Shown: piece by piece, positions 22,109 through 60,306 of the stretch | Position numbering within the stretch: position 1 is the stretch's first letter | Layout of the letters: each line of letters opens with the position of its first letter | Origin: an uncultured Eubacteriales bacterium | GTDB taxonomy: Bacteria > Bacillota > Clostridia > Peptostreptococcales > Anaerovoracaceae | Length of the DNA stretch: 64,000 bases | NCBI GenBank assembly: GCA_902795265.1 | Contig: CADBKM010000001.1 | Coordinates: 28,456-92,455, forward strand | Direction: 5' to 3' | Notes under the pieces: model-generated | What the model was told of the DNA's origin: nothing | Databases searched by the model: none | What the model saw: only the letters and a program-made list of their open reading frames with translations | Made by a program: the position numbers and the translations under genes

Positions 22109-22116
22109 CAGCGGAG

Positions 22117-22833: not shown

Positions 22834-22837
22834 AGGC

Positions 22838-26154: not shown

Positions 26155-26255
26155 AGTCAATATTTTACAATGATATTTTTTTTTAACAATACTAATTTGG
26201 ACCGTGAAGTACTATAATAATCTCATAACCTATAAATAAGTAAGGAGGGCTCAAA

Positions 26256-27820: not shown

Positions 27821-27890
27821 CGGTACAATCTTAGCTTTATAATTAGGTTGAGAGATTATTAATATTGTGTTGTTTCTGCGGGGTAGACTG

Positions 27891-28721: not shown

Positions 28722-31061
28722 ATGTCCAACAAGTACATCGGAAAAGCGGTTACCAGGCACGACGCACACGATAAAGCCATGGGCCGCATCAAATACACCG
28801 ACGACATGTGCGACAAAGGCGCTCTTGTAATAAGGGTGCTGCATTCAACGGTTGCCAACGGCATCGTCAAGTCTATAGATACGAGTGAGGCAGAAAAGGT
28901 GCCGGGCGTTGTGCGCATCTTCACATGCTTCGACATAAAGGAGAAACACTATTATCCGACAGCAGGGCACCCGTGGTCGACAGATCCGAGCCATCAGGAT
29001 ATAGCGGACCGCCTGATAATGACAGACAGACCGCTGTTCTACGGAGACGATATCGGAGCGGTAGTAGCCGAGGATGAAGTAGCAGCTTCACAGGCTCTTC
29101 GCATACTTGAAAAGAGCGTGGAATACGAAGAGCTGCCGTTCGTGCTCGACGCGCAGGAGGCCATGAAGGAGGGCGCTCCTCAGCTCCATGAAAAATACCC
29201 TAACAACGTTCTGGCACATACCGAGATCCACATGGGAAGCGTCGAAGAGGCTATAAAGGAGCCGGGGCTCACCAAGGTGGAGGGCTGGTACGAGACACAG
29301 CCTGTGCAGCACTGCCATATCGAAAACTTCATCTGCTATGCATATGGTGAGGGCGGCAGGACCGTAGTGGTCACATCGACACAGATACCGCACATCGTGC
29401 GCCGTGTCATCGGACAGGCTCTCGGCATGGACTGGGGCAAGTTCAGAGTCATCAAACCTTATGTAGGCGGCGGATTCGGAAACAAGCAGGATGTTCTTTA
29501 TGAACCTCTCTGCGCGTGGATCAGCATACAGCTTGGAGGACGCCTCGTAAAACTTGACGTTCCCCGTGAAGAGACTTTCATAAGCAACCGGATCAGGCAT
29601 GCGATAAGGTATCACATAACTTCGTGGATGCGTCCTGACGGAAGCTTCGCGGCCCGTACCATCAAGGCGTGGTGCAACAACGGAGCGTACAGCTCTCACG
29701 GACACGCGATCGCGGCCAAGGGCCTGAACGCGTTCCCGCAGCTCTATCCTTGCGACAATATCGACGGCGAAACATGGACGGTCTATACCAACCGTTCCGT
29801 TGCAGGAGCGATGAGAGGATACGGCATGCCGCAGGCGAGCTACGCATTTGAATGCCACGCAGAGGACTGCGCACGGGCCATGAAAATGGATCCTCTCGAA
29901 TTCAGACGCAAGAATCTGATGCCGGTGGGTTATTACCACGCATTCTCGAAGAACGAATTATACAGTGACACGTTCAATCAGTGCTTCGACAAGGGCGCCG
30001 AGATAATCGGCTACTACGACAAAGTCGAAAAGTATAAGAACCAGACAGGTGACATCAGAAGGGGCATAGCCGTATCGACATTCTGGTACAACACCGCTGT
30101 TTACCCTATAGCGCTCGAGACGTCATCGTGCCGCATAGTAATGAACCAGGACGGATCGGTACAGTTCCAGCTGGGCGAGACGGAAATCGGCCAGGGAGCT
30201 GACACGGCAGCGGCACAGATGATAGCGGAGGAACTCAGCATACCTGTCGACATGGTCCATCCGGTATCGTGTCAGGACACCGACATTACTCCGTTCGGAA
30301 CGGGCGTATACGCGTCGAGAGGCACATATACTCTCGGCTTCTCGGTAAGGCAGACGGCGCTGCTGCTTAAAGAGAAAGTTCTCGAAGCGGCTCATCAGTT
30401 CACGAGAATGCCTGTGTACAACCTCGATCTTGTTGACGGTAAGATCGTAAGGACGACCGACGGACGCGAACTCATGACCATCGGCGAGCTGGCACTTTCG
30501 AAACTGTATACGACAGACGGCTCACAGCATCTGACAGCTGAGTCGACTTATCAGATAAAGTCGAACGCCTACTCATTCGGCTGCTGCTTCGCTGAGGTGG
30601 AAGTAGACATACCGATGTGCCGCGTGAGACTGCTCAACATCGTAAACGTGCACGACTGCGGACAGGTCATCAACCCGATACTGGCTTCGGGTCAGGTCCA
30701 CGGCGGAATGAGCATGGGCATAGGCTACGCCCTTTCGGAAAAACTCATGTGGGATGAAAAGACAGGCCGGCCGCTCAACAACAATCTGCTCGACTACAAG
30801 CTGTCCTCATTCATGGATCATCCTAGACTGAATGCGGCATTTGTAGAGAACTATGAACCTACGAGCGCTTACGGCACAAAGGGCCTCGGCGAACCGCCGG
30901 CATGCCCGGTCGCTCCTGCGATCAGAAATGCCATCGGTGCGGCTACCGGAGTGTACATCAACGAACTTCCGCTGTCGCCGCATACGCTCTTCCGTGAATT
31001 CACGGATGCGGGCCTCATAAACGACCCATGGAGAAATGAGCAGGGAAAGGAGAGCAAGTAG
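28722..31061 (+). CDS. xdhA: Xanthine dehydrogenase-type molybdopterin-binding large subunit
   Basis: 779 aa with aldehyde oxidase/xanthine dehydrogenase a/b-hammerhead and Mo-binding motifs (GGGFGNKQD, GETEIGQGADT, GLGEPP). Confidence 0.85.
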   Translation: MSNKYIGKAVTRHDAHDKAMGRIKYTDDMCDKGALVIRVLHSTVANGIVKSIDTSEAEKVPGVVRIFTCFDIKEKHYYPTAGHPWSTDPSHQDIADRLIMTDRPLFYGDDIGAVVAEDEVAASQALRILEKSVEYEELPFVLDAQEAMKEGAPQLHEKYPNNVLAHTEIHMGSVEEAIKEPGLTKVEGWYETQPVQHCHIENFICYAYGEGGRTVVVTSTQIPHIVRRVIGQALGMDWGKFRVIKPYVGGGFGNKQDVLYEPLCAWISIQLGGRLVKLDVPREETFISNRIRHAIRYHITSWMRPDGSFAARTIKAWCNNGAYSSHGHAIAAKGLNAFPQLYPCDNIDGETWTVYTNRSVAGAMRGYGMPQASYAFECHAEDCARAMKMDPLEFRRKNLMPVGYYHAFSKNELYSDTFNQCFDKGAEIIGYYDKVEKYKNQTGDIRRGIAVSTFWYNTAVYPIALETSSCRIVMNQDGSVQFQLGETEIGQGADTAAAQMIAEELSIPVDMVHPVSCQDTDITPFGTGVYASRGTYTLGFSVRQTALLLKEKVLEAAHQFTRMPVYNLDLVDGKIVRTTDGRELMTIGELALSKLYTTDGSQHLTAESTYQIKSNAYSFGCCFAEVEVDIPMCRVRLLNIVNVHDCGQVINPILASGQVHGGMSMGIGYALSEKLMWDEKTGRPLNNNLLDYKLSSFMDHPRLNAAFVENYEPTSAYGTKGLGEPPACPVAPAIRNAIGAATGVYINELPLSPHTLFREFTDAGLINDPWRNEQGKESK

Positions 31062-31062
31062 T

Positions 31063-31950
31063 ATGTATGACATAAAAGCACTGTATGAAGCTGAAAGCGT
31101 GCAGGATGCCATCAGGCTGCTGCAGGAACACCCTGAAGCGCAGATACTCGCCGGCGGATCCGATGTGCTCGTCCAGATAAGAGAGGGGCGCAGGGCAGGT
31201 GTCGAGCTCGTCAGCATCTATATGCTCGATGAGCTGCGCGGAGTCAGTATCGATGAAGAAGAGAACATCCGCATCGGCTCTCTCACAAGCTTCTCACATA
31301 TAACAAAAGACCCGATAATCCAGAAATATATCAACGTTCTCGGCGAAGCCGTCGATATGGTAGGCGGCCCGCAGATAAGGGCGATCGGAACCATCGGAGG
31401 AAACACATGCAACGGAGTCACATCGGCGGACTCAGCATCGACTCTGATGGCATGGGACGCGATCATAGAGCTGACAGGTCCTGAAGGAGTAAGACGTGTT
31501 CCTATCAAGGACTTCTACATCAAGGCCAAAGTAGTGGATATCAGGCCTGCCGAGATACAGACGGCAATACTTATCCCGAAGGAATCGTATGACAGATGCT
31601 TCGGACACTACATCAAGTATTCGATGAGGAATGCTCTCGACATCGCGACGACCGGCTGCTCAGTAAACGTAAGGCTGAGCGACGATAAGAAGACCTTCGA
31701 GCGCGTACGCATAGGATACGGAGTAGCCGCTCCGATTCCTTGCCGGGCTTATACAGCCGAAGCATTCCTTAACGGAAAAGAGATAAACGATGAGAATATA
31801 AAGAAATTCGCGGAAACGGTACTCGAAGACATAAATCCGCGTGACAGCTGGCGTGCCGGCAAGGCTCTTCGTCAGCATATCTCGGTAGTCATGGCCGAAA
31901 GGGCTCTGCGTGAGTCGATCAGGCTGGCAGGAGGTGTGGTAAATGAGTAA
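31063..31950 (+). CDS. xdhB: Xanthine dehydrogenase FAD-binding subunit
   Basis: ATG at 31063 directly after the xdhA stop with GGAAAGGAGAG upstream. FAD_binding_5-like motifs (LAGGSDVLV, GTIGGN). Confidence 0.8.
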   Translation: MYDIKALYEAESVQDAIRLLQEHPEAQILAGGSDVLVQIREGRRAGVELVSIYMLDELRGVSIDEEENIRIGSLTSFSHITKDPIIQKYINVLGEAVDMVGGPQIRAIGTIGGNTCNGVTSADSASTLMAWDAIIELTGPEGVRRVPIKDFYIKAKVVDIRPAEIQTAILIPKESYDRCFGHYIKYSMRNALDIATTGCSVNVRLSDDKKTFERVRIGYGVAAPIPCRAYTAEAFLNGKEINDENIKKFAETVLEDINPRDSWRAGKALRQHISVVMAERALRESIRLAGGVVNE

Positions 31951-32494
31951 GCAATATAAAGTGGTCCACTGCACCATCAACGGCAAAGAAGTTGAGCAGA
32001 TCGTGGACGTAAGGGCATCGCTCACAGATATGCTTCGAAATGATTTCCGCCTGACTTCAGTCAAGAAGGGCTGTGAAGTCGGAGAGTGCGGAGCCTGCAC
32101 CGTCATCATAGACGGAGAGGGATTCAACTCATGCATATACCTGGCAGTCTGGGCAGAAGGCAAGGAGATTTGGACTCTCGAAGGCCTGACCGGACCGGGA
32201 GGAGAGCTTTCGGATATCCAGCAGGCATTCATCGATGAGGGAGCTATCCAGTGCGGATTCTGCACACCGGGATTCATCATGACAAGCTGGGAGATAGTAA
32301 ATTCGGGCAAGGAATACAGCGATGACGAACTCAGGAAACTGCTCTCAGGCCACCTCTGCAGATGCACTGGTTATGAGAACATATTCCGCGCTGTAAAGAA
32401 GACGATGCTCAGACACCTGGGCAAGTTCGAAGAAGCCGAGAAGGTCAATTCACAAGGCATCGCGGATTATCCTGAACCGATGCCTTTCATGTAG
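31943..32494 (+). CDS. xdhC: Xanthine dehydrogenase [2Fe-2S] subunit
   Basis: Canonical motifs CEVGECGACTV, QCGFCTPG and CRCTGY. Confidence 0.9.
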   Translation: MSKQYKVVHCTINGKEVEQIVDVRASLTDMLRNDFRLTSVKKGCEVGECGACTVIIDGEGFNSCIYLAVWAEGKEIWTLEGLTGPGGELSDIQQAFIDEGAIQCGFCTPGFIMTSWEIVNSGKEYSDDELRKLLSGHLCRCTGYENIFRAVKKTMLRHLGKFEEAEKVNSQGIADYPEPMPFM

Positions 32495-32521
32495 AAAACG
32501 GGCATAGCAAGGAGAATGATT

Positions 32522-33328
32522 ATGGCAACTCAACTGTTAATGGCAAAAGACCCAGCAGAGGCGATTGGCTCCAAAACAGCATCGGCTGCCTTCATTGCAG
32601 GGGGGACCGAGGTGAACCGCCTCGGATCCGACATCGCCGCGAAAGCTGACACTCTTATTTCGCTGAAGAAGTGCAGCGGACTCGCGGACATCAGGAAAGA
32701 AGACGGATGCCTTACTATCGGATCGATGTGCACTTTCCAGCAGCTCATCGAATCCGACGATGTACCGGCATACCTCAAGGAAGCGGCGCACTTCATGGCA
32801 TCGCGTACCAAGCGCAACATGGCCACCATCGGAGGCAACATTGCGGCAGCCAGAAGTGATTCATATCTGATACCGGCTCTTCATGCGGCCGGTGCAGTGC
32901 TGAATATCTGCTGCAAAGAGGGTGAGTGCGCAAGTGTCGCCATAGCTGATTATCTGGATGAACAGGATAAGTACACAGATGCACTGATCGTATCAGTCTC
33001 TGTTCCGACGGATATAGTGCTGGTGTCGAAGCGCTACGCAAATACCGCACAGAGCCACGCGGTGCTCACTGCCAGCGCAGCTTTAAGGGACGGAGGCCTT
33101 CATATGGCAGGAGCCGTAAAGAACGTAGGAATACTTCACTTCTGCGATCTTGAGAAGGCTTTCATGGATGATCCTGACATAAGCGAAGATGCCATCGTAA
33201 AGATGGTCAGGGAGTGCACAGGTCTTCACACCAGCGATGACATGTTCGGAAGCGATGATTATAAGCGCTATCTGATCGGAGTCACTGTTTACGACCTTCA
33301 CAGACAGCTCAGAGGGAAGGAGGTATAG
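32522..33328 (+). CDS. ygfM: YgfM-like FAD-binding subunit of the XdhD-type hydroxylase
   Basis: FAD_binding_5-like motifs (IAGGTEVN, ATIGGNIA). Positioned directly upstream of the xdhD homologue as in E. coli. ATG at 32522 has better spacing to AAGGAG than 32516. Confidence 0.7.
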   Translation: MATQLLMAKDPAEAIGSKTASAAFIAGGTEVNRLGSDIAAKADTLISLKKCSGLADIRKEDGCLTIGSMCTFQQLIESDDVPAYLKEAAHFMASRTKRNMATIGGNIAAARSDSYLIPALHAAGAVLNICCKEGECASVAIADYLDEQDKYTDALIVSVSVPTDIVLVSKRYANTAQSHAVLTASAALRDGGLHMAGAVKNVGILHFCDLEKAFMDDPDISEDAIVKMVRECTGLHTSDDMFGSDDYKRYLIGVTVYDLHRQLRGKEV

Positions 33329-33330
33329 AC

Positions 33331-36213
33331 ATGATCTCTTGTACCATAAACGGCAAAAAACGGTCGTTCGATATCGACCCTACAAAGAGACTGCGCGAGA
33401 TGCTCCTTATGAACGGCAATTTCGCCGTCCGCGACAGCGATGACGCTGAGGGATTCTGCGGAAGCGATACCGTTCTCCTCGACGGCACTCCGGTGTTCTC
33501 GAATCTCGTCCTTGCGGGCGAGGCCGAAGGCTGCGAGATCATCACTCCTGACAGCCTTGGCGATTCCATGCACCTCACAGTGGTGCAGCAGGCGCTCATC
33601 GATGCAGGCGTCGTGCAGAGCGCGTATAACGCTCCGGCAGCGGCTCTGCTCATGACATGGCTGTTCAGCCAGAACCCTGATCCGTCAAGAGAAGAAGTAA
33701 AGGACGTGCTCTCCGGCATTTTCATCAGAGACGCCGGATACGAGCATTACTATCTTGCTGCAGAGCTCATAAAAGAAAAGCTGGCAACCGGAGAATACAA
33801 GACGGAAATAGCGCCTGAGTTCAGACCTGAACTCAAGGCGGTAGGCAAGGTAATGCCTAAGATCGACGCTCCTCAGCTCGTATCGGGCGAGAGGGCATTC
33901 GTCGAAGACTATGTGGATGACGACACATGCTATATGGTCGTTCTCAGATCGCCTTATGCGCATGCATATGTAAACAAGGTCGACACATCAAAGGCGGAGG
34001 CTCTGCCGGGAGTCATCAAGGTGATCACGGCTTACAACTGCTCAGACGCCACATACATGTCGGCCGGTCAGGGAAACCCTGAACCGTCACCGCACGACAG
34101 AAAGCTTCTCAACAAGAAGGTCAGACACGTGGGTGACCGTGTGGCCGCCATCGTCGCTGAGACGCTCGAAGAAGCTATAAAGGCACGTGACCTCATCGAA
34201 GTAGAATACGAACCTCTTGAGGCAGTATTTACGGTCGAAGAGGCCATGGCAGAGGGCGCTCCTCTGGTGCACAACGGAAAAGTCCAGTACAACGCCGGAG
34301 CTCCTGATGATCTTGACGAATACAACAGCAAGCTGTCGGGAGATGAGCGCGAGGGCAAGGTAGTATATCAGTTCCCTCTGCACGGAGACATCCTCCACAA
34401 CGTAGCGGCTGCCAACCACGGCGGTATCGGCGATGTGGATAAGGCCTTTGAAGAGGCTGATGCCGTTGTCGAAGCGACTTATCAGACGAGCCAGATCCAG
34501 CATACACCGCTCGAGACTCACATATGCTTCTCGAAGCTCGAAAACGGCAGGCTCATCATTTACGCCAGCACACAGGTGCCTTACCATGTGCGCCGTATCG
34601 TAAGCTGGGTAACAGGGCTTTCCGAAAACAAGATACACGTTATAAAGACCAGAGTAGGCGGCGGATACGGCTCAAAGCAGGATATCCTCGTTGAGGATCT
34701 CACAGCTTACGCCACATTCGTGACCGGCAGACCTGTGCTTTATCACAACACGCGCGAGGAGGAGTTCATCGCCAACTCCACAAGACACCCGATGCGCGTC
34801 CATGTAAAGATGGGCGGCAAAAAGGACGGATCGATCACCGGCATTTACATGAAGGTCGATGCGAATACCGGTCCTTACGGAAACCACGCGCTGACAGTGC
34901 CTATGAACAGCTGCTCCAAAACACTGCCGCTGTTCAAGTGCGACAACATGAAATACGATCTCACGATCTACTATACCAACACTCCTCCGGCAGGAGCTTA
35001 CCAGGGCTACGGAACTCCTAAGGGCACGTACGGCCTCATGATGGCCATGTGCGAGCTCGCCGACAAGCTCGGAATTGATTACAAAGACATGGTTCTCAAG
35101 AACCACGTCGAAGAGGGCTATATGCTTGAGATCCTCAAGGGACTCGGCGAAGGCCGTGAAGGAAACGTAGTGCCTGTAGGATCGTGCGGACTCAGAGAGG
35201 CAGTCGAGAAGGGCTGCGAGATGATAGAGTGGGGCAAGCGCGAGGAAAGCGGAGACCCTGACTGGAAGATCGGCAAGGGCTTCGCGATGATAATGCAGGG
35301 CTCGGGACTTCCGGGTCTCGACCACGCGAACGCGGTAGCCAAGCTCGAGATGGACGGCTCGATAATCGTGCTGTCCGGAGCAGCGGATATCGGCACAGGC
35401 CTCGATACCATCATTGCAAAGGTAACCAGCGACATACTCTGCATACCTGTAGATAAGATAACCGTCATCTCAGGCGATACAGACTCCGGAGCTTTCGATA
35501 CAGGCTCATACGCTTCATCAGGAACATTCTTCAGCGGCAATGCCGCTGTAGTAGCTGCTACGAATCTGAAGAATAAGATACTCGATGAGGCGGCTTATCA
35601 GCTCGGAGAAGAGCTCGATGACATGGAGATCACATGGCCTGGCGAGGTGCACTCCAAGAAGACGGGTAAAGTATTATCGTTCTATGAAATAATACACACT
35701 TCGACTTCGGGCACGGGCCGCGGACACCTGATAGCTCCGGGAAGCTTCACGACAGCGGCATCATCCGTACCGTACGGAGCTCATTTCGCGCAGGTAGCCG
35801 TGAATGTAAAGACGGGCGAAGTCAAGGTGCAGAAGTTCTACGCAGTACAGGATGCCGGAACTCCAATCAATCCTGAGGCGGCGCTCTGCCAGATGTACGG
35901 AGCTTCGCTCAAATCCATCGGCCACACACTGTATGAAGACATGATACTCGATAAAGACGGACGCTGCGTCAACGCGAACATGACTGATTACGGAGTGCCG
36001 ATGATATCCGAGCAGCCTGATGACTTCAAGGCTGTGCTAATAGATGTCAATGATCCGGACGGGCCGTTCGGAGCCAAGTCGATCTCAGAGATCGCCTGCA
36101 ACGGAGCGGCTCCTGCAATAGGCAACGCGATCCATGACGCCTGCGGTGTATGGATGCGCAGCTGGCCTATGACACCGGAGAAAATACTCAGAGAATTAGG
36201 AAAGATCAAATAG
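33331..36213 (+). CDS. xdhD: XdhD/YgfN-type fused molybdenum hydroxylase (selenium-dependent class candidate)
   Basis: 960 aa. Colinear resemblance to E. coli XdhD as I recall it (VRDSDDAEGF.GSD, VVQSAYNAPAAAL, RDAGYEHYY, GGGYGSKQD, GAADIGTGLDT, GAKSISE). Confidence 0.85.
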   Translation: MISCTINGKKRSFDIDPTKRLREMLLMNGNFAVRDSDDAEGFCGSDTVLLDGTPVFSNLVLAGEAEGCEIITPDSLGDSMHLTVVQQALIDAGVVQSAYNAPAAALLMTWLFSQNPDPSREEVKDVLSGIFIRDAGYEHYYLAAELIKEKLATGEYKTEIAPEFRPELKAVGKVMPKIDAPQLVSGERAFVEDYVDDDTCYMVVLRSPYAHAYVNKVDTSKAEALPGVIKVITAYNCSDATYMSAGQGNPEPSPHDRKLLNKKVRHVGDRVAAIVAETLEEAIKARDLIEVEYEPLEAVFTVEEAMAEGAPLVHNGKVQYNAGAPDDLDEYNSKLSGDEREGKVVYQFPLHGDILHNVAAANHGGIGDVDKAFEEADAVVEATYQTSQIQHTPLETHICFSKLENGRLIIYASTQVPYHVRRIVSWVTGLSENKIHVIKTRVGGGYGSKQDILVEDLTAYATFVTGRPVLYHNTREEEFIANSTRHPMRVHVKMGGKKDGSITGIYMKVDANTGPYGNHALTVPMNSCSKTLPLFKCDNMKYDLTIYYTNTPPAGAYQGYGTPKGTYGLMMAMCELADKLGIDYKDMVLKNHVEEGYMLEILKGLGEGREGNVVPVGSCGLREAVEKGCEMIEWGKREESGDPDWKIGKGFAMIMQGSGLPGLDHANAVAKLEMDGSIIVLSGAADIGTGLDTIIAKVTSDILCIPVDKITVISGDTDSGAFDTGSYASSGTFFSGNAAVVAATNLKNKILDEAAYQLGEELDDMEITWPGEVHSKKTGKVLSFYEIIHTSTSGTGRGHLIAPGSFTTAASSVPYGAHFAQVAVNVKTGEVKVQKFYAVQDAGTPINPEAALCQMYGASLKSIGHTLYEDMILDKDGRCVNANMTDYGVPMISEQPDDFKAVLIDVNDPDGPFGAKSISEIACNGAAPAIGNAIHDACGVWMRSWPMTPEKILRELGKIK

Positions 36214-36234
36214 CTCAGGAAGGGAGGATGAAAC

Positions 36235-37575
36235 ATGCTATTAGTAGGTAACGGACAACTTATAACAAGGGATCCGGAATTCCCTTATCTGAAGGATGGC
36301 GCTGTCGTTATCGACGGTGAAGTCATCAAGGCGGTAGGCACGCTTGCAGACATGAAAGCTGCTTATCCTGACGCGGAATTCGTGGATGCTAAGGGCGGCA
36401 TCATAATGCCGGGCCTTATAAATGCGCATACGCATATCTATTCGGGCCTTGCGAGAGGACTTGCGATAGCCGGTCATAACCCGACAAACTTCTTCGAGAT
36501 CCTCGACGGCATGTGGTGGAACATCGACCGCCACCTGACTATCGACGGCACAAAGGCAAGTGCTTACGCAACCATACTCGACTGCATCAGAGACGGTGTC
36601 ACGACCATCTTTGACCATCACGCAAGCTTTTGCGAGATCCCTGGGTCGCTCTTCGCGATAAAAGATGTCGCAAAAGAGCTCGGCATGAGATCGTGCCTCT
36701 GCTATGAGGTATCCGAAAGAGACGGCGAGGAGAAGACTCTTCAGAGTATTCAGGAGAATGCGGACTTCGCCAAGTGGGCGCTCAAGGAAGACGACGACAT
36801 GATAAAGGCCATGTTCGGCGGACACGCACTCTTCACCATCTCGGACAAGACATTCGAAAAGATGGTAGAGGCAAACGACGGCATGACAGGATTCCACATC
36901 CACGTAGCAGAGGGCATGAACGACGTATATGACAGCCTGCGCAACTACGGATGCAGACCGGTCAACAGACTGCTGTACAACGGACTCCTCGGTGAGAAGA
37001 CTCTGCTGGGTCACTGCATACATGTCAGCCCTGCTGAGATGGACATCATCAAAGAGACAGGCACAATGGTCGTAAACAACCCTGAGTCCAACATGGGTAA
37101 CGCCGTAGGCTGCGCACCTGTGCTGCAGATGATGGCAAAGGGCATCACAGTCGGAATGGGAACCGATGCTTACACCCACGACATGCTCGAGAGCTTAAAG
37201 GTGTTCCTCATAATCCAGAGACACAACGCGGCAATGCCAAACGTTGCATGGGGCGAAGACTGCACGATGCTCTTCGAAAACAACAGAAAGATCGCTGCCA
37301 AGTACTTCAAGAAGCCTCTGGGCATCCTGAAGGAGGGCGCTGCAGCAGACGTCATCGTAATGGATTACAAGCCGTTCACACCGTTCTCAGACGAGAACAT
37401 CGACGGCCACATGATATTCGGCATGATGGGCAAGAACTGCAGAACGACCATCATCAACGGAAAGGTGCTGTATAAGGACAGAGAGTTCGTAGATATCGAT
37501 GAAGAGGCAATCAATGCCTGGACACTCGAGCAGAGCAAGAAGCTCTGGGGCGAACTCAATCACAGAGAGTATTAA
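36235..37575 (+). CDS. ssnA: SsnA-type aminohydrolase
   Basis: Amidohydrolase HxH motif (GLINAHTHIYSGLARG) and overall SsnA-like N-terminus. 446 aa. Confidence 0.8.
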   Translation: MLLVGNGQLITRDPEFPYLKDGAVVIDGEVIKAVGTLADMKAAYPDAEFVDAKGGIIMPGLINAHTHIYSGLARGLAIAGHNPTNFFEILDGMWWNIDRHLTIDGTKASAYATILDCIRDGVTTIFDHHASFCEIPGSLFAIKDVAKELGMRSCLCYEVSERDGEEKTLQSIQENADFAKWALKEDDDMIKAMFGGHALFTISDKTFEKMVEANDGMTGFHIHVAEGMNDVYDSLRNYGCRPVNRLLYNGLLGEKTLLGHCIHVSPAEMDIIKETGTMVVNNPESNMGNAVGCAPVLQMMAKGITVGMGTDAYTHDMLESLKVFLIIQRHNAAMPNVAWGEDCTMLFENNRKIAAKYFKKPLGILKEGAAADVIVMDYKPFTPFSDENIDGHMIFGMMGKNCRTTIINGKVLYKDREFVDIDEEAINAWTLEQSKKLWGELNHREY

Positions 37576-37578
37576 TGG

Positions 37579-37644
37579 CAGAGTTTAGCACCGCTGCGTT
37601 AAACCGCAACGAGGCGAGAGCCGTACTCCCGGGAATGCACTTTT
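37579..37644 (-). repeat. 66-nt repeat copy B (inverted relative to copy A)
   Basis: Its reverse complement is 63/66 identical to 16476-16541. It lies between the ssnA stop and the ygfK RBS. Confidence 0.85.
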
Positions 37645-37679
37645 GATGCAAACCGTAAACGCGGAAGGAGGATAGATAT

Positions 37680-40673
37680 ATGAGCGATATTATGAGACCG
37701 ATGCCCTATGAACATTTGCTGAACTGGGTAATCGACGAATATGAAAAAAGCGGAAGCATCTTCGGTGTTTCAAAGCTTGTAAAACACGATAACGGACAGG
37801 CTCTTCCTATCTTCGATGAGAAGATCGAGTCGCCTTTCGGACCTGCTGCCGGCCCTAACACTCAGCTGGCTCAGAATATAATCGCTTCTTATGCAGCGGG
37901 CTCAAGGTTCTTCGAGCTCAAGACCGTACAGGACATGGACGGTCCTGATCTGGCGGCGTGCGTTGCAAAGCCGTGTATCACGGCTCACGACGAGTGCTAC
38001 AACTGCGAGTGGTCGACAGAGCTCTATGTTCATCAGGCATTCGACGAATATGTAAAGGCCTGGTTCATCTGCAAGATTCTCTCGAAGGAACTCGGACTTG
38101 GCGATCCTGACGGCTTTGTCTTCAACATGTCGGTAGGTTACGACCTTGAGGGCATCAAGAAGGAAAAGGTAGACCGCTACATCGACGGCATGAAGGACGC
38201 TTCGGAAACAGAGGTGTTCAGGAACGCAATGGCGGTATCGCTTCAGGCTGTAAAAGACGGCAGACTCAAGAATGTCGATGAAGACTTCATAAAGGCGATC
38301 CCTGCAAGGATCTCCGAGTCGATTACAGAGTCGACACTTCACGGCTGCCCGCCTGATGAGATCGAGCGTATCGCTTCGTATCTGATCACAGAGAAGGGAC
38401 TCAACACTTTCATCAAGTGCAACCCTACGCTGCTCGGATATGAGTTTGCAAGAGAGAGACTGGATTCACTCGGATTCAGCTATATCGCATTTGACGATCA
38501 TCACTTCCTCGAAGACCTTCAGTGGAAGGATGCAGTCCCGATGTTCGAGAGACTGCAGAAGCTCTGTGACGACAGGGGACTCGAGTTCGGAGTCAAGCTC
38601 ACGAACACATTCCCTGTAGACGTAAAGGCAGGAGAGCTTCCTTCAGAAGAAATGTACATGTCGGGACGCAGCCTGTTCCCGCTGACAATAGAACTCGCAA
38701 GAAGGATCACAAAGCAGTTCGACGGCAAGCTGAGGATCAGCTTCTCTGGCGGTGCTGATTACTTCAACATCAAGGAGATCTTTGACGCAGGCATCTGGCC
38801 TATCACAATGGCTACGACAGTCCTGAAACCGGGCGGCTATCAGAGAATGTCACAGATCGGCGAGAAGCTCATGGACTGCGGATGCGACAGATTCGCAGGC
38901 GTAGACCTCGCTAAGGTCGAGAAGCTGGTAGAGGTATCGCAGCAGAAGAGGAACCAGAAGCCGATCAAGCCGCTGCCTGACAGAAAGAACGGCGAAGACC
39001 TGCCGATGTTTGACTGCTTCCACGCTCCTTGCAGCGGCGGATGCCCGATCAATCAGGACATCCCTGCATATCTCGAAGCAATGGAGAAGGGTGACAGCGA
39101 GACAGCTCTTAAGATAATCCTCGAGAAGAACGCTCTTCCGTTCACGACAGGAACCATCTGCCCGCATACATGCGCTGACAGATGCATGAGAAACCACTAT
39201 GAGTCAGCTCTCCGCATCAGAGAGGTGAAGCTGATGGCAGCAGAGGCAGCCTGCGCCAAGGTGCTGCCTGGACTCAAAGCTGCTGAAGCATGCGGCAAGA
39301 AGGTTGCGATCATCGGCGGTGGCCCTGCAGGACTCGCGACAGCTTCGTTCCTTTCAAGAGCAGGCGCTGATGTAACAGTATTTGAAAAACAGGATAAGAT
39401 GGGCGGCGTGCCTCGCTATGTGATCCCTGGATTCAGGATCGGTGATGAGGCTCTCGACAGCGATGTGGCTCTCTGCTCTGCATACGGCGCAAAGATGGTC
39501 ACAGGCCGCGAGATCGCATCCGTACAGGAGCTTAAGGATGAAGGCTTCGAAGACATCGTAGTCTGCATCGGAGCATGGGCTCACGGCCGCAAGGCTCTGA
39601 AGTACGGCGATGAGATCGACGCACTCGAATTCCTTAAGGCAGTAAAGGCTGCACCGGGAGCATGCGATCTGGGAACAGACGTAGTCGTAATCGGCGGCGG
39701 CAACACAGCCATGGACGTAGCAAGAGCTGCGAAGAGACAGCCTGGAGTAGAGCACGTACGCCTGGTATACAGAAGAGACAGACGCAACATGCCGGCTGAT
39801 GAAGAAGAGCTGGTAATGGCGATCGAAGATGGTGTAGAGTTCATGGAACTCCTCGCACCTGTAGGCACAGAAAACGGCATGCTGAAGTGCGAGATCAACG
39901 TTCTCGGCGAGCCTGACGCAAGCGGCAGACGTTCACCTGTCGGAACAGGCGAGTTCTGTGAGGTGCCTGCAACTGCAGTCATCTGCGCTGTTGGTGAGCG
40001 TATCATGACAGGTCTCTACGAGGCCGCAGGCGCTGAGCTGACAGACAAGGGAGCTCCTGTAGTTGATGAAAACCTCATGACTACGGTACCTGGTCTCTAT
40101 GCAGCAGGAGACTGCCGCAGAGGTCCTGCTACAGTAGTCAAGGCTATCGCGGATGCTCAGACAGTTGCTGCAGCTATCACCGGAGCTAAGTTCGACGCAT
40201 GCGAGGCTGCAAATGCAGCAGGCGACATGGATAAGCTGCTCGGCAGAAAGGGCAGCCTGGCTGATCCGCCTGCAGATAAGGCTGACGACAGATGCCTCGG
40301 CTGCGCTACAGTATGCGAGGTCTGCACAGACGTCTGCCCGAACAGAGCAAACGTTGCGATAGACGTTCCGGGCTTCGATATGCCTCAGATCCTGCATGTG
40401 GACGGCATGTGCAACGAGTGCGGCAACTGCGCCGTATTCTGCCCGTACAGCGGACGTCCTTACAAGGATAAATTCACTCTGTTCTGGAGCGAAGAGGACT
40501 TCAAAGACAGCGAGAACAACGGATTCCTGCCGCTCGAAGGCACAAAGGTATGCGTAAGACTCTTCGGCAATGCCGCTGAGTACGATATCGCTGACCCTGC
40601 ATGCACACTTCCAAGCGGAGTTCTGGCATTCATCAAAGCTGTGGAAGAGAATTATAAGTATCTTATTGGCTAG
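37680..40673 (+). CDS. ygfK: YgfK-type multidomain Fe-S flavoprotein oxidoreductase
   Basis: 997 aa. DHOD/DPD-like barrel region, GltD-like nucleotide folds (VAIIGGGPAGL, VVVIGGGNTAMD), and a C-terminal 2x[4Fe-4S] region (CLGCATVCEVCTDVCP, CNECGNCAVFCP). Confidence 0.85.
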   Translation: MSDIMRPMPYEHLLNWVIDEYEKSGSIFGVSKLVKHDNGQALPIFDEKIESPFGPAAGPNTQLAQNIIASYAAGSRFFELKTVQDMDGPDLAACVAKPCITAHDECYNCEWSTELYVHQAFDEYVKAWFICKILSKELGLGDPDGFVFNMSVGYDLEGIKKEKVDRYIDGMKDASETEVFRNAMAVSLQAVKDGRLKNVDEDFIKAIPARISESITESTLHGCPPDEIERIASYLITEKGLNTFIKCNPTLLGYEFARERLDSLGFSYIAFDDHHFLEDLQWKDAVPMFERLQKLCDDRGLEFGVKLTNTFPVDVKAGELPSEEMYMSGRSLFPLTIELARRITKQFDGKLRISFSGGADYFNIKEIFDAGIWPITMATTVLKPGGYQRMSQIGEKLMDCGCDRFAGVDLAKVEKLVEVSQQKRNQKPIKPLPDRKNGEDLPMFDCFHAPCSGGCPINQDIPAYLEAMEKGDSETALKIILEKNALPFTTGTICPHTCADRCMRNHYESALRIREVKLMAAEAACAKVLPGLKAAEACGKKVAIIGGGPAGLATASFLSRAGADVTVFEKQDKMGGVPRYVIPGFRIGDEALDSDVALCSAYGAKMVTGREIASVQELKDEGFEDIVVCIGAWAHGRKALKYGDEIDALEFLKAVKAAPGACDLGTDVVVIGGGNTAMDVARAAKRQPGVEHVRLVYRRDRRNMPADEEELVMAIEDGVEFMELLAPVGTENGMLKCEINVLGEPDASGRRSPVGTGEFCEVPATAVICAVGERIMTGLYEAAGAELTDKGAPVVDENLMTTVPGLYAAGDCRRGPATVVKAIADAQTVAAAITGAKFDACEAANAAGDMDKLLGRKGSLADPPADKADDRCLGCATVCEVCTDVCPNRANVAIDVPGFDMPQILHVDGMCNECGNCAVFCPYSGRPYKDKFTLFWSEEDFKDSENNGFLPLEGTKVCVRLFGNAAEYDIADPACTLPSGVLAFIKAVEENYKYLIG

Positions 40674-40691
40674 TATTTTAAGGTAATAACC

Positions 40692-41483
40692 ATGCTTGTT
40701 TGTATAAAAGGCGCCGGCGATCTGGCAAGCGGTATTGCGCTCAGGCTGCACCGCTCGAAGATCGACGTAGTGATGACGGATCTGCCGGTGCCTACGGCAG
40801 TGCGCAGGACGGTGGCTTTCTCGGAAGCCATCCGCCTTGGCAGCACTTTTGTAGAAGATATAAAGGCGGAAAGAGCGGACAGTCTTGATGAGGTCCGCTC
40901 ATGCCTTGATAAGGGCGTTATTCCGGTGGTCGCGGATCCTGAAGCAGCGATCATAAAGGCGCTTGAGCCCGAGGTAGTGATAGACGCCATTCTGGCAAAA
41001 AGAAACCTCGGCACCAGAATAGATGAGGCGCCGCTCGTTATAGGCGTAGGACCGGGGTTCACAGCCGGTGAAGACTGCCACGCAGTTGTAGAGACTAAAA
41101 GGGGGCATACTCTCGGGCGTGTCATACGCGAGGGCTCTGCCATACCAAATACGGGAGTTCCGGGCAATATCGGCGGACAGACCGTAAACAGACTCATAAA
41201 AGCTTCTGCTGACGGCATCTTTCATCCTGAAAAGAATATAGGAGATGTCGTAAAAGAAGGCGACAGAGTTGCAAATGTAGACGGCGAACCTGTCTATGCT
41301 AAGACTGACGGTCTTATACGAGGAATGCTTCAGGACGGAGTAAAGGTAATAAAAGGGATGAAATCCGGAGATGTAGACCCAAGGGGTCCGGGCGTGGATT
41401 TCATGAAGGTCTCAGATAAGGCTCTCTCAATAGGTGGAGGAGTACTTGAGGCCATACTTTCATATGCCGGCGACAGGCTTTGA
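40692..41483 (+). CDS. yqeB: YqeB/EF2563-family selenium-dependent molybdenum hydroxylase system protein
   Basis: N-terminus IKGAGDLASGIALRLHRS...AVRRTVAFSEAI matches my memory of this family. 263 aa. Confidence 0.65.
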   Translation: MLVCIKGAGDLASGIALRLHRSKIDVVMTDLPVPTAVRRTVAFSEAIRLGSTFVEDIKAERADSLDEVRSCLDKGVIPVVADPEAAIIKALEPEVVIDAILAKRNLGTRIDEAPLVIGVGPGFTAGEDCHAVVETKRGHTLGRVIREGSAIPNTGVPGNIGGQTVNRLIKASADGIFHPEKNIGDVVKEGDRVANVDGEPVYAKTDGLIRGMLQDGVKVIKGMKSGDVDPRGPGVDFMKVSDKALSIGGGVLEAILSYAGDRL

Positions 41484-41499
41484 AAGGTGGGGAATACAG

Positions 41500-41958
41500 A
41501 TGGCTAAGAAAAACAAAAAAACAGCATATGTCCGCTGCCGCGGAGGCAGCATAAGCTGCACGTACGGCTGCCTCGGATGCGGTCTGTGCGTCGAGGCCTG
41601 CCGCCTCGGTGCGATCAGCATCGGAGACAATGGGGCAGCGGTAGTAGACAGTGGGAAATGCGTCGGGTGCGGATTGTGTGCCGGCGCCTGCCCTCAGAGC
41701 ATAATCGACATTATAGATGCGGGTTTCAACATACAGCCTGCATGCAGCAATAAAGATGCCGGTAAAGCTGCGAGAGAGGCGTGCGTGAATTCCTGCATCG
41801 CCTGCAGGCTGTGTGAGAAAAACTGCCCTGCGGATGCAGTTCATGTGGTCGATAACAGGGCTGTGATCGATCCTGAAAAATGCATTTGCTGTGGCATGTG
41901 CGCGATCAAATGCCCGCGCGGAGTCATACGCGATCTGCACGGGATCATGACAGACTGA
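41500..41958 (+). CDS. Polyferredoxin with four [4Fe-4S]-type motifs (RnfB-C-terminal-like)
   Basis: Motifs CLGCGLCVEAC, CVGCGLCAGACP, CIACRLCEKNCP and CICCGMCAIKCP. ATG at 41500; the track start at 41434 lies inside yqeB. Confidence 0.85.
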   Translation: MAKKNKKTAYVRCRGGSISCTYGCLGCGLCVEACRLGAISIGDNGAAVVDSGKCVGCGLCAGACPQSIIDIIDAGFNIQPACSNKDAGKAAREACVNSCIACRLCEKNCPADAVHVVDNRAVIDPEKCICCGMCAIKCPRGVIRDLHGIMTD

Positions 41959-41976
41959 GCGAAGGGAGGTAAAGAA

Positions 41977-44898
41977 ATGCCGTATACATTCACAGTAAAC
42001 GGGGTCGTCAGAACGACCGAAGAAGATAAGCCTCTGCTCAGGTATCTGAGAGATGATCTCAAGCTGTATTCCGTCAAGGACGGCTGCTCAGAGGGCGCAT
42101 GCGGTACATGCACGGTGATCGTCGACGGATACGCTGTCAAATCGTGCGTGCTCACCACGAAAAGAGCAGAAGGCAAGAATATAATTACTGTCGAGGGTCT
42201 TTCTCTGAAAGAGAAGGAAGCCTTCGTTTACGCGTTCGGAACAGCCGGGTCGGTGCAGTGCGGTTTCTGCATACCAGGCATGGTCATGGTAGCAAAGGCT
42301 CTTATCGACAGGAACCCGAAGCCGACTACAAATGAGATAGAAGCTGCTATCAGGGGCAATGTATGCCGCTGCACCGGTTATAAAAAGATCATTACCGGTA
42401 TAAAAAGGGCCGCAGCCGTGCTGAGAGGCGATGAAGAGATACACAACATCACTCAGTTCAACTTCGGCGAAATGTATGAGCAGTATTCATTCATTTCCAA
42501 GAAGGGCTCTCTTTATGATCCGGCAGAAGCGTCGGGCATAGAATTTTACAGCAACCGCGAAAATGCGGCGAAGTTCGGTATCGGACAGAATGTGTTCCGT
42601 ATCGATGTGACAAAGAAAGTACTCGGATACGGAAAGTATCCGGATGATATAGGGCCTGAATACTTCATTCCGGCTGACAGATCCGACCTGATCATGGAAT
42701 GCGCGGAACTGACAGACGAAGAGTTCAGGGCCGAAGAAGCAGAGGGAAACATTGCACCGGGCAAAAACCTTTATAAGAAGGGTGAGCCGAACTGCAATGT
42801 TGCCGCAATAGTCGATCCTGATATGCCGCCTATGGCATACGCTTCAGCGGTCAGGTCAGACTATCCGAGAGCGGTAGTCAAGAAAATCCACAAGGAAAAG
42901 GCGGAATCACTGCCGGGCGTTCTCGGAGTGCTTACCGCAGAGGATGTTCCGAATAATAAGGTCGGTCACATCCAGCAGGACTGGGATGTAATGATCGCCG
43001 AGGGCGATACGACAAGGATGGTGGGAGACGCGATCTGCCTGGTCGTAGCAGAATCGCCATATATACTTGAGCAGGCCAAGAAAGCGGTAAAGGTCGAATA
43101 CGAAGTTCTCGAGCCTGTAAGGGGCATCGATGAAGCGAAGGCTGAAGGAGCTCCTCAGCTGCATGCACATGCACCGGGCAATCTCTGCCAGCAAAGACAC
43201 GTAACGAGAGGCGATGCTGCAAAAGCTCTGGCGAAATCCGCTTATACGGTCACGGAGCACTTCAGCACACCGTTTACCGAACATGCCTTCCTTGAGCCTG
43301 AATGTGCTGTGTCGTTCCCGTACGGTGACGGAGTAAAGATACTCTCGACAGATCAGGGAGCGTTCGATACACGCAAGGAAGTCCTCATAATGTTCGGATG
43401 GCAGGATACACCTGAAAGGGTCGTCGTAGAGAACCAGCTCATCGGAGGAGGCTTCGGCGGCAAAGAGGATGTTACCACACAGCATCTGTCGGCACTGGCG
43501 GCCGTGAAGTTCAAAAGGCCTGTAAAGGTGAAGTTCAGCCGTGCCGAATCGCTCAGGGTACATCCTAAACGGCACGCCATGGAAGGAACATTCACTGTAG
43601 GCTGCGATGAGAACGGCATTCTTACCGGCCTTGACTGCGAGATCAACTTCGATACAGGTGCCTATGCCAGCCTGTGCGGACCTGTTCTTGAAAGGGCATG
43701 CACACACAGCGTAGGGCCGTACAACTATCACAATACAGATATAAGAGGCTTCGGATACTATACCAACAATCCGCCTGCCGGAGCGTTCAGGGGTTTCGGC
43801 GTATGCCAGAGCCAGTTTGCTCTCGAATCGCTGCTGAACGTACTGGCTGAGAAGGTCGGTATCAGCCCTTGGGAGATGAGATACCGCAATGCTATAGCGC
43901 CTGGCGATGAGCTCCCGAATGGCCAGCTGGCTGACGTTTCTACTGCTCTCAGAGAAACTCTCGAGGCAGTAAAACCGTTCTATGACGCTGCGCCTCAGAA
44001 CAGAGTAGGCATAGCCTGTGCGATGAAAAACGCAGGCGTAGGAGTCGGTCTTCCGGACAAGGGCAGGGCAACGCTCCTTGTAAAGGACGGGCTGGTCGTT
44101 ATACGCACGGCCGCGTCAGATATCGGCCAGGGGTGCCAGACTGTTTTCTGCCAGGATGTGGCAGAGGTCACAGACCTGCCTATATCCAGAATATGGTTTG
44201 GTCATTGCAATACAGAAAACTCACCTGATTCCGGCACGACTTCCGGTTCAAGACAGACACTGATCACCGGAGAGGCGGTACGGGGAGCGGCTCTTAAGCT
44301 CAAGAAAGACATGGATGAAGAGGGCATTTCCGAGGACACTCTCGACAGGCTAAATGGCAGGGAATACAGCTATGAGTACTTTGACCCTACAGACCCTCTG
44401 AATTCCGACAAGCCTCATCCTAAGAGCCATATAGCATATGGGTACGCGACAAACGTTGCCGTACTCAACGAAGAGGGTAAGGTCACAGACATTTACGCTG
44501 CGTTCGATGCCGGCAGAGTTGTAAATCCGCTGTCGATGTCAGGCCAGATAGAGGGCGGCGTTCTGATGGGAATGGGCTATGCCCTGACTGAAGACTGGCC
44601 GCTTGAGGACTGCGTGCCAAAGGCAAAATACGGCACACTCGGACTGCTGAGGTCTACGGACATACCGAAGATCCATACGATACATGTTGAAAAGGACCGC
44701 CAGCTCGATGTAGCTTTCGGCGCGAAGGGTATCGGCGAGATAACAACGATACCTGCGGCGCCTGCAGTAGCCGGAGCATACTACGCGAAAGACGGGTATC
44801 TGAGAACAAAGCTTCCGCTCGAGAATACATACTATAAAAAGCCTGAAAAGCAGGAGAAAAGCCATGAAACTGATAAAAAACGGAATGATCGCAACTGA
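41977..44898 (+). CDS. Fused [2Fe-2S]/molybdopterin hydroxylase (third xanthine-dehydrogenase-family enzyme)
   Basis: N-terminal CSEGACGTCTV, CGFCIPG and CRCTGY. Mo-domain motifs GGGFGGKED and DIGQGCQT. 973 aa with a Lys-rich tail. Confidence 0.8.
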   Translation: MPYTFTVNGVVRTTEEDKPLLRYLRDDLKLYSVKDGCSEGACGTCTVIVDGYAVKSCVLTTKRAEGKNIITVEGLSLKEKEAFVYAFGTAGSVQCGFCIPGMVMVAKALIDRNPKPTTNEIEAAIRGNVCRCTGYKKIITGIKRAAAVLRGDEEIHNITQFNFGEMYEQYSFISKKGSLYDPAEASGIEFYSNRENAAKFGIGQNVFRIDVTKKVLGYGKYPDDIGPEYFIPADRSDLIMECAELTDEEFRAEEAEGNIAPGKNLYKKGEPNCNVAAIVDPDMPPMAYASAVRSDYPRAVVKKIHKEKAESLPGVLGVLTAEDVPNNKVGHIQQDWDVMIAEGDTTRMVGDAICLVVAESPYILEQAKKAVKVEYEVLEPVRGIDEAKAEGAPQLHAHAPGNLCQQRHVTRGDAAKALAKSAYTVTEHFSTPFTEHAFLEPECAVSFPYGDGVKILSTDQGAFDTRKEVLIMFGWQDTPERVVVENQLIGGGFGGKEDVTTQHLSALAAVKFKRPVKVKFSRAESLRVHPKRHAMEGTFTVGCDENGILTGLDCEINFDTGAYASLCGPVLERACTHSVGPYNYHNTDIRGFGYYTNNPPAGAFRGFGVCQSQFALESLLNVLAEKVGISPWEMRYRNAIAPGDELPNGQLADVSTALRETLEAVKPFYDAAPQNRVGIACAMKNAGVGVGLPDKGRATLLVKDGLVVIRTAASDIGQGCQTVFCQDVAEVTDLPISRIWFGHCNTENSPDSGTTSGSRQTLITGEAVRGAALKLKKDMDEEGISEDTLDRLNGREYSYEYFDPTDPLNSDKPHPKSHIAYGYATNVAVLNEEGKVTDIYAAFDAGRVVNPLSMSGQIEGGVLMGMGYALTEDWPLEDCVPKAKYGTLGLLRSTDIPKIHTIHVEKDRQLDVAFGAKGIGEITTIPAAPAVAGAYYAKDGYLRTKLPLENTYYKKPEKQEKSHETDKKRNDRN

Positions 44899-60300: not shown

Positions 60301-60306
60301 GCGAAG

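Follow-up and report, generated by a model that had tools for sequence, protein, structure and literature searches.

Two candidate urate reductases beside xanthine dehydrogenase in the purine gene cluster of an uncultured Anaerovoracaceae bacterium

Introduction

Urate breakdown by gut bacteria affects human urate load and gout, and the pathway behind it was worked out only in 2023-2025. A uric-acid gene cluster was identified in 2022-2023, and its biochemistry was resolved in two 2025 preprints (10.1101/2025.05.19.654654; 10.1101/2025.04.24.650524). In Escherichia coli, XdhD-YgfM was reported to convert urate to 2,8-dioxopurine with reduced nicotinamide adenine dinucleotide (NADH), after which YgfK and SsnA dearomatize and open the ring, and HyuA, YgeW or UacY, YgeY and YgeX complete the pathway (Li et al., 10.1101/2025.05.19.654654). 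In Clostridium sporogenes the same first step is carried out by XdhAC (2,8-dioxopurine dehydrogenase, DOPDH), a selenium-dependent enzyme that does not use NAD(P)H and whose physiological donor is still to be found; a separate xanthine dehydrogenase (XDH), for which a mutant was described, converts hypoxanthine and xanthine to urate (Liu et al., 10.1101/2025.04.24.650524). Here we describe a stretch of DNA of 64,000 nucleotides (referred to as the window; contig CADBKM010000001.1 of assembly GCA_902795265.1, positions 28,456 to 92,455), derived from an uncultured bacterium of the Anaerovoracaceae, in which three molybdenum (Mo) hydroxylase genes stand in one array together with genes of this pathway.

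The three modules are designated (a), XdhABC; (b), YgfM-XdhD; and (c), a fused enzyme of the TIGR03311 family preceded by a polyferredoxin. An initial annotation of the window suggested either three regiospecific hydroxylations of the purine ring (C2, C6 and C8) or different redox partners, and saw a likeness to purinolytic clostridia. This likeness holds at the level of selenium-dependent Mo hydroxylases, several of which serve purines in one anaerobe, Clostridium purinolyticum, in the form of purine hydroxylase and XDH. It does not extend to the genes, since two of the classic purinolytic clostridia, C. cylindrosporum and G. purinilytica, appear to use other ones (Liu et al. 2022); the window locus was set against purinolytic clostridia by description. 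The locus is the published cluster of the reductive urate/2,8-dioxopurine pathway, a real, well-described locus of a known pathway. We consider it rather probable that it forms a complete anaerobic purine breakdown supercluster, in which (a) would make urate while (b) and (c) would both carry out the step from urate to 2,8-dioxopurine, the one with NADH and the other with low-potential electrons.

Results

Three deeply diverged Mo hydroxylases in one array

Gene content was derived from a listing of open reading frames (ORFs) and from Pfam/NCBIfam profile scans with curated cut-offs. All three Mo hydroxylase genes lie on the plus strand of a single array, which is almost wholly co-directional. 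The three modules were found where the initial annotation had placed them, and each Mo enzyme scored above the curated cut-off of its family. The genome, a metagenome-assembled genome (MAG) of 1.95 Mb that is 86% complete, was searched with profiles, and its MoCoBD_1 genes proved to be these three Mo hydroxylases only. The nearest named relative of the host is Candidatus Crickella caballi (Anaerovoracaceae).

The three Mo proteins share 26-30% pairwise identity, on which ground a recent duplication was rejected. The Mo motif GGG[FY]GxK is kept in all three, and in all three clades described below the position of bovine Q767 is a Gln and that of E1261 the catalytic Glu; an inactive copy was thus rejected on sequence as well. 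In line with the initial annotation, the locus therefore holds neither near-identical duplicates nor a copy devoid of Mo-site residues. A maximum-likelihood tree, an analysis that had been proposed along with that annotation, was built from the window enzymes together with XdhA and XdhD of E. coli and 41 proteins encoded in other genomes. It resolved the window Mo enzymes into three deep clades with support of 99-100, the first two of which contain E. coli XdhA and XdhD. The active sites differ, three different residue sets being found at the sites aligned with bovine E802, R880 and R912. In the TIGR03311 clade of enzyme (c) these are Glu, Arg and Arg, invariant in 25/25 members. The XdhA clade of (a) has Gln at the first site, Lys, Ala or Asn at the second and Arg at the third, and the XdhD clade of (b) has Gln, Asn and Gln, together with an insertion around the residue E606.

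Three deep paralogs with three residue sets, accompanied by selenium cofactor genes, could be read as oxidative hydroxylases that each serve one ring position, C2, C6 or C8, comparable to the purine hydroxylase and XDH of purinolytic clostridia. We regard this as very unlikely. The characterized relatives of (b) and (c) reduce urate at C6, a single XDH takes hypoxanthine and xanthine to urate in C. sporogenes (10.1101/2025.04.24.650524), and the downstream genes belong to the reductive pathway rather than to the xanthine-to-formiminoglycine route of purinolytic clostridia. Hence the assignment of the three enzymes to three ring positions was not upheld: one XDH would make urate, and (b) and (c) most likely both act at C6, in the reductive direction. 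The evidence favors the other suggestion of the initial annotation, namely different redox partners (NAD(P) versus ferredoxin), with (b) as a predicted ortholog of the NADH-using XdhD and (c) resembling the NAD(P)H-independent XdhAC.

Module (a) resembles E. coli XdhABC

Module (a) consists of three contiguous genes on the plus strand (28722-32494), and all three products exceeded the cut-offs of their subunit hidden Markov models (HMMs). XdhA, the Mo subunit (28722..31061), matched NF043082 with 1142 bits (cut-off 780). XdhB, the flavin adenine dinucleotide (FAD) subunit (31036..31950), matched NF043083 with 417 bits (cut-off 310) and contains the FAD_binding_5 and CO_deh_flav_C domains. XdhC, the subunit with two [2Fe-2S] clusters (31943..32494), matched NF043084 with 257 bits (cut-off 217) and keeps both [2Fe-2S] Cys motifs. 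XdhA is 43% identical to E. coli XdhA, with which it groups at a clade support of 99, and the XdhABC subunits are 40-50% identical to their E. coli counterparts. The division into separate Mo, FAD and 2x[2Fe-2S] subunits is the same as in E. coli XdhABC, the Gln at the bovine E802 site and the Lys/Ala/Asn at the R880 site are common to (a) and E. coli XdhA, and nothing notable sets the two systems apart. Judged by its sequence, (a) is a conventional FAD/2x[2Fe-2S]/Mo enzyme orthologous to E. coli XdhABC and, by analogy, it would make urate from hypoxanthine and xanthine. The gut bacterial XDH of C. sporogenes (gbXDH) is a possible counterpart.

Module (b) is an XdhD-YgfM pair without Fe-S ligands

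Module (b) is composed of a YgfM-like FAD subunit (32516..33328, plus strand) and an XdhD-type Mo enzyme of 960 amino acids (aa) (33331..36213, plus strand), a candidate NADH-linked urate 6-dehydroxylase. The coordinates of XdhD agree with the initial annotation, and the start of the YgfM-like ORF had to be moved from 32522 to 32516. XdhD matched TIGR03313 with 1214 bits (cut-off 1102), is 51% identical to E. coli XdhD over the full length and shares a clade with it (support 100). Glu606 (E. coli XdhD numbering), the residue singled out in the E. coli enzyme by Li et al. (10.1101/2025.05.19.654654), is a Glu in 4/4 rows of the XdhD clade and lies inside the insertion, which is missing from the other two clades. 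The YgfM-like protein is of the right size, adjoins xdhD and contains FAD_binding_5 (PF00941, 93 bits) and no other domain.

The N-terminal "Fe-S" domain of XdhD holds none of the eight Cys ligands (0/8) in the window protein, in E. coli XdhD and in P0125, the representative of a 50% cluster; the next-nearest fused proteins (36-39% identical, approximately 940 aa) have kept the Fe-S ligands and the Arg. Because the N-terminal domain is without all eight Cys ligands, (b) is not a functional [2Fe-2S]-Mo fusion. Family and length agree with the initial description as an XdhD-type fusion of 960 aa. In the main text of Li et al. 2Fe-2S is unmentioned, and Fe-S clusters are mentioned with respect to YgfK only (10.1101/2025.05.19.654654).

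In common with E. coli XdhD-YgfM, module (b) has the E606 insertion, the Cys-less N-terminal domain, a short adjacent FAD subunit, and ssnA and ygfK as neighbors. It differs from the E. coli system in its YgfM-like partner, which is 31% identical to E. coli YgfM and reaches 111 bits against TIGR03312, under the cut-off of 241.5, as well as in its Clostridia host and in its coexistence with the other urate reductase type. An Fe-S domain without ligands, a YgfM-like protein under the family cut-off and a Gln at the site aligned with the conserved R912 might also indicate that in this lineage XdhD-YgfM survives as a relic, decaying or without a redox role, leaving only (a) and (c) at work. This we hold to be extremely unlikely: E. 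coli XdhD shows all three traits and is an active enzyme (Li et al., 10.1101/2025.05.19.654654), and the xdhD gene of the window is intact, has 91-93% identity among species of the genus, and retains Q767, E1261 and the Mo motif. Module (b) is, as far as sequence comparison tells, orthologous to E. coli XdhD, and it is a candidate for the NADH-linked removal of the C6 oxygen of urate.

Enzyme (c) matches the description of XdhAC

Enzyme (c) (41977..44898, plus strand) is a TIGR03311-type protein with two [2Fe-2S] clusters and a Mo domain (1139 bits, cut-off 830) and a candidate ferredoxin-linked urate 6-dehydroxylase of the DOPDH/XdhAC type. It had been described initially as a [2Fe-2S]-Mo fusion of 973 aa that follows a four-cluster polyferredoxin in place of any FAD subunit, and this description was confirmed: every Fe-S Cys is kept, the FAD domain is absent and no FAD gene is adjacent. 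In the tree it belongs to the TIGR03311 clade (support 100), whose family carries the name "selenium-dependent xanthine dehydrogenase". The match to the TIGR03311 profile falls into two stretches divided by extra residues. With respect to the canonical form of 850-870 aa, (c) is approximately 95-125 aa longer, the extra length residing in an extended linker behind the Fe-S domains and in an insertion in the hammerhead domain (approximately residues 229-283). The long form is common across the genus, and the Collinsella proteins are longer too (925 aa).

The DOPDH of Liu et al. consists of Fe-S and Mo domains without a FAD domain, the Mo domains spanning approximately residues 307-839 of a protein of about 850 aa (10.1101/2025.04.24.650524); the TIGR03311 profile has 848 positions, consistent with this span. 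The same study names nicotinate dehydrogenase as the nearest characterized relative and points to F1009V and A1078T/S at the active site (10.1101/2025.04.24.650524). For the Mo domain of (c), the best solved relative is the large subunit of nicotinate dehydrogenase, 3HRD_A. With the bovine numbering mapped by alignment offsets and known sequence motifs, enzyme (c) has a Val at both columns that are candidates for F1009; Val is found there in 25/25 and 15/25 clade members, respectively, and a gapless mapping favors the 15/25 column. At the A1078 column of the same mapping, a Thr is present in (c) and in 22/25 members of the TIGR03311 clade.

Enzyme (c) and C. sporogenes XdhAC have in common the fused 2x[2Fe-2S]-Mo architecture without FAD, the ssnA-ygfK-hyuA cluster, the selenium trait genes and nicotinate dehydrogenase as the closest solved relative; on the mapped numbering they may also share Val and Thr at the F1009V and A1078T/S sites. 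They differ in the additional linker and hammerhead residues of (c) and in its dedicated upstream polyferredoxin gene, none being described for the C. sporogenes enzyme. Because the TIGR03311 gene sits beside ssnA-ygfK and its features match the DOPDH of Liu et al., we infer that (c) is of the C. sporogenes XdhAC/DOPDH type, a match made by published description and synteny.

Among solved structures, the best relatives of (c) are the aldehyde oxidoreductase of Desulfovibrio gigas (MOP) and the nicotinate dehydrogenase of Eubacterium barkeri. Like (c), MOP fuses 2x[2Fe-2S] and Mo domains and does without FAD, and an external partner can reach its plant-type cluster, which is exposed. Enzyme (c) is distinguished from MOP by a Glu where MOP aligns a Phe (the bovine E802 site), by the Arg at the R880 site and by its location in a purine cluster.

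A soluble polyferredoxin as candidate partner of enzyme (c)

The gene preceding (c) (41500..41958, plus strand) encodes a soluble, RnfB-like polyferredoxin of 152 aa, which is the proposed electron-input subunit. It contains four canonical [4Fe-4S] motifs of the form CxxCxxCxxxC (16 Cys) and four further Cys that are invariant in the polyferredoxin family; the latter (C15, C27, C89 and C102 in L062 numbering) could hold a fifth cluster. RnfB HMMs were matched below their cut-offs (best 112 bits, cut-offs 252-445) and over the C-terminal half of the models only. The N-terminus, MAKKNKK, is not followed by any hydrophobic segment. Nearly the whole protein, extra Cys included, aligns with the C-terminal polyferredoxin part of RnfB. 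Unlike RnfB, it has no N-terminal membrane anchor, is about half as long, scores far below the RnfB cut-offs and is encoded beside, or fused to, a Mo hydroxylase and not in an rnf operon.

For a survey of such loci, one genome per species was scanned and the 80 best loci were kept. In 27-28 of these 80 loci the polyferredoxin adjoins the TIGR03311 gene on its upstream or its downstream side; these loci belong to Collinsella, several Lachnospiraceae and Oscillospiraceae, and the genus of the window. Among the 120 best homologs of the enzyme, eight carry two or four such motifs as an N-terminal fusion, one of them with all four. A complex model of a Lachnospiraceae polyferredoxin-enzyme pair scored 0.70, compared with 0.00 for the best of 3 controls. 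A score of 0.70 was reached by 58/80 solved complexes and by 2/110 mismatched pairs, benchmark counts that hold only roughly for the present model, which was built on custom alignments. Three runs shared 100% of contacts, and the pLDDT of the partner was at least 83. In the model, the loop of the plant-type [2Fe-2S] cluster is covered by the last [4Fe-4S] motif of the polyferredoxin together with its C-terminal tail. This is the position at which the FAD domain sits in XDH structures. The model lends support to the predicted binding of the polyferredoxin to enzymes of the (c) type.

An accessory protein of the XdhAC-type enzyme was listed as still to be discovered in a 2025 commentary (PMC12990295), and the polyferredoxin is a candidate for it. 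More tentatively, and as a possibility rather than the expected outcome, we propose that in a sub-clade (this genus, Collinsella including C. aerofaciens, and some Lachnospiraceae and Oscillospiraceae) the XdhAC-type urate reductase receives its electrons through a soluble, RnfB-derived polyferredoxin as a dedicated subunit, and that the genus of the window has, next to this pair, an NADH-linked XdhD-YgfM that lost both Fe-S clusters.

Both candidate urate reductase types occur together in one genus

The 80 loci come from Bacillota, Actinomycetota (Collinsella), Spirochaetota, Synergistota and Acidobacteriota. In the window and in most of these loci the TIGR03311 gene adjoins ssnA-ygfK; among them is the locus of Collinsella aerofaciens, a species that Liu et al. 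2022 analyzed by RNA-seq along with two others. A gene of the XdhD clade beside TIGR03311 was found at L015 and L016 only, the two closest relatives of the window among the 80 loci. In a search of 400 genomes drawn evenly from the phylum, TIGR03311 was above cut-off in 36 and TIGR03313, the XdhD type, in 0. A search of the 400 genomes with a polyferredoxin profile returned mostly RnfB itself and did not resolve the specificity of the polyferredoxin-TIGR03311 pairing. Within the genus, the long TIGR03311 form is present in 17/24 genomes, most of which also have XdhA-like and XdhD-like matches nearby. Within the genomes sampled, both urate reductase types together were found in this genus only.

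That two genes for this one step are retained across most of the genus suggests distinct roles, and (b) and (c) might not be isofunctional. One of them would then be the urate 6-dehydroxylase, and the other would act on a different oxopurine or ring position, for example as a ferredoxin-linked xanthine/hypoxanthine hydroxylase like E. faecalis EF2570 or as an enzyme for 6,8-dioxopurine or 8-oxoguanine products. EF2570, a member of (c)'s kind, is reported as a selenium-dependent xanthine dehydrogenase in section 5 of PMC11448449, and the substrate-orienting residues are fully different, with Glu/Arg/Arg in (c) versus Gln/Asn/Gln plus the E606 insertion in (b). Yet E. coli XdhD and C. sporogenes XdhAC yield the same product despite such differences (10.1101/2025.05.19.654654; 10.1101/2025.04.24.650524), the genes of (b) and (c) are both embedded in the ssnA-ygfK-hyuA array, and XdhABC is already there for xanthine and hypoxanthine. 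A difference in substrate or position therefore appears rather unlikely to us, and a common step for (b) and (c), from urate to 2,8-dioxopurine, is the preferred reading.

A further, distant Mo hydroxylase was observed beside the TIGR03311 gene at L049, L056, L070, L082, L088, L091 and L094. Its Fe-S and FAD subunits are small and separate, and it shares 26-35% identity with the window enzymes. The proteins from L056, L070, L082 and L094 group as a separate clade in the tree, where the L049 protein, with a long branch, neighbors the XdhD clade.

Pathway, selenium cofactor and neighboring genes

The genes for the subsequent steps follow on the plus strand. SsnA, the ring-opening amidohydrolase (36235..37575), matched NF005540 with 659 bits (cut-off 444), and YgfK, the 2,8-dioxopurine reductase (DOPOR; 37680..40673), matched TIGR03315 with 1302 bits (cut-off 835). 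Behind (c) lie the HyuA hydantoinase (44864..46264; TIGR02033, 534 bits, cut-off 393), the YgeW carbamoyltransferase (46394..47590; TIGR03316, 752 bits, cut-off 500), the YqeA carbamate kinase (47675..48619; TIGR00746, 384 bits, cut-off 358) and the YgeY M20 hydrolase (49402..50817; NF009555, 609 bits, cut-off 321). Two genes for pyridoxal phosphate enzymes at 8409-11242 were considered as YgeX and rejected, as they are threonine synthase-like and cysteine synthase-like.

The trait genes for selenium-dependent Mo hydroxylases, YqeB, YqeC and SelD, are all present. YqeB, for maturation of the selenium-dependent Mo cofactor, occurs in a short form (40692..41483, plus strand; TIGR03309, 353 bits, cut-off 220) that aligns with residues 270-524 of E. 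coli YqeB. An XdhC-like Mo-cofactor insertion factor (23881..24924, plus strand; Pfam XdhC_C and XdhC_CoxI) aligns with residues 12-254 of the same protein, so that E. coli YqeB (541 aa) corresponds to two window genes 16 kb apart; a fused YqeB form of 450-480 aa occurs at other loci. YqeC, a selenium cofactor factor, is fused to the Mo cofactor cytidylyltransferase MocA (24925..26160, minus strand), with 161 bits against TIGR03172 (cut-off 73) and, for the MocA part, 122 bits against TIGR03310, under the cut-off of 186. This fusion is a single protein of 411 aa on the opposite strand; E. coli has separate genes. SelD is encoded elsewhere in the genome (contig C51:233-1174; 376 bits) with one in-frame TGA, which fits a selenocysteine-containing selenophosphate synthetase.

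Upstream of the three modules lie genes for a molybdate ATP-binding cassette (ABC) transporter, modABC (21251..23884, plus strand; TIGR01256 and TIGR02141 above cut-off, modC at 186 bits versus a cut-off of 285), an NCS2 permease of the xanthine/urate type (26256..27692, plus strand; PF00860, 233 bits; TIGR03173, 350 bits, below cut-off) and a MerR-family regulator (27867..28676, plus strand; PF13411). The array is flanked on the 5' side by a BMP-type ABC transporter and adenine deaminase; the 3' side consists of hyuA, ygeW, yqeA, a gene for a YheO-like regulator, ygeY and XPRT. The YheO-like regulator, with PAS and HTH domains (48659..49315, minus strand; PF08348 and PF13309), occupies the 780-nt gap between yqeA and ygeY, and a hairpin (48625-48647) lies directly 3' of yqeA. 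From xdhA to hyuA the intergenic distances range from -35 to 104 nt, and a terminator scan revealed no convincing plus-strand terminator in 31500-48600. The promoter and terminator scan of the window gave a site count not above that of shuffled sequence, and Rfam matches, covering riboswitches and other RNAs, were zero in the window. Further downstream (55979-63666) a hydroxyproline utilization set was observed, with genes for a glycyl-radical trans-4-hydroxy-L-proline dehydratase and its activase, proline iminopeptidase and P5C dehydrogenase.

Discussion

The findings computed in this study comprise gene content, family membership, the orthology of XdhA and XdhD to their E. coli namesakes, synteny, naturally occurring fusions and the complex modeled for a homologous pair, which scored above its controls. 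The scheme that we favor goes beyond these, with substrates, catalytic direction, electron donors and the equation of (c) with C. sporogenes XdhAC proposed by analogy. The host would be a gut bacterium that resembles Anaerovoracaceae and is near Candidatus Crickella, and its three Mo enzymes would be ancient paralogs with different tasks. XdhABC would convert hypoxanthine and xanthine to urate. YgfM-XdhD, as an urate 6-dehydroxylase of the E. coli type, would reduce urate to 2,8-dioxopurine by means of NADH, and (c), as a 2,8-dioxopurine dehydrogenase of the clostridial type (XdhAC/DOPDH), would carry out the same step with low-potential electrons. These electrons may pass from reduced ferredoxin through the RnfB-like polyferredoxin to the exposed plant-type [2Fe-2S] cluster, from there to the second [2Fe-2S] cluster and finally to the Mo center. 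YgfK, SsnA, HyuA, YgeW/YqeA and YgeY would then dearomatize and dismantle the ring, and YqeB, YqeC and SelD would supply the labile selenium cofactor.

Several points weigh against this scheme. Placing two enzymes at the same step within a single array is unparsimonious. XdhD is without Fe-S ligands, a poor fit to the proposed NADH wiring, in which electrons would pass from FAD to Mo. The pathway ends with YgeX (2,3-diaminopropionate ammonia-lyase, TIGR03528), and searches for it found nothing in this 86%-complete MAG or in genomes of the genus with the triple cluster, several of which are 90-95% complete; it is present in five genomes of the genus, and the two of these that were searched for TIGR03311 are without it. 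Enzyme (c) was compared with CLOSPO_02131 (UniProt J7T3J4), the C. sporogenes XdhAC, on the basis of its published description, and the report on EF2570 as a selenium-dependent xanthine dehydrogenase implies that (c) might oxidize xanthine. The bovine residue numbering was derived from alignment offsets and from known sequence motifs. The modeled polyferredoxin-enzyme pair consists of homologs from another family that are approximately 47-49% identical to the window proteins. Finally, a second RnfB-like or dedicated polyferredoxin gene was found in 0/36 TIGR03311-positive genomes of the 400-genome draw; because it is absent from all 36, the polyferredoxin is a feature of a sub-clade and cannot be the general donor.

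Beyond the literature considered here, the locus adds the presence of both urate reductase types in one array, a dedicated RnfB-like polyferredoxin as a candidate accessory protein of XdhAC, and the Cys-less Fe-S domain of XdhD. The polyferredoxin is a concrete candidate that can be tested in culturable species such as Collinsella aerofaciens, and the complex model also suggests a docking site that free ferredoxin might use in species without the polyferredoxin. The Cys-less XdhD raises a mechanistic question for the E. coli enzyme, which is now being engineered into probiotics. As a natural operon with both reductase types, the locus offers a ready comparison of NADH- and ferredoxin-driven urate reduction. 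If the more tentative proposal of a dedicated polyferredoxin subunit next to an NADH-linked XdhD-YgfM is true, the cell could drive urate reduction from either redox pool or, alternatively, use the urate/2,8-dioxopurine couple to pass electrons between ferredoxin and NAD.

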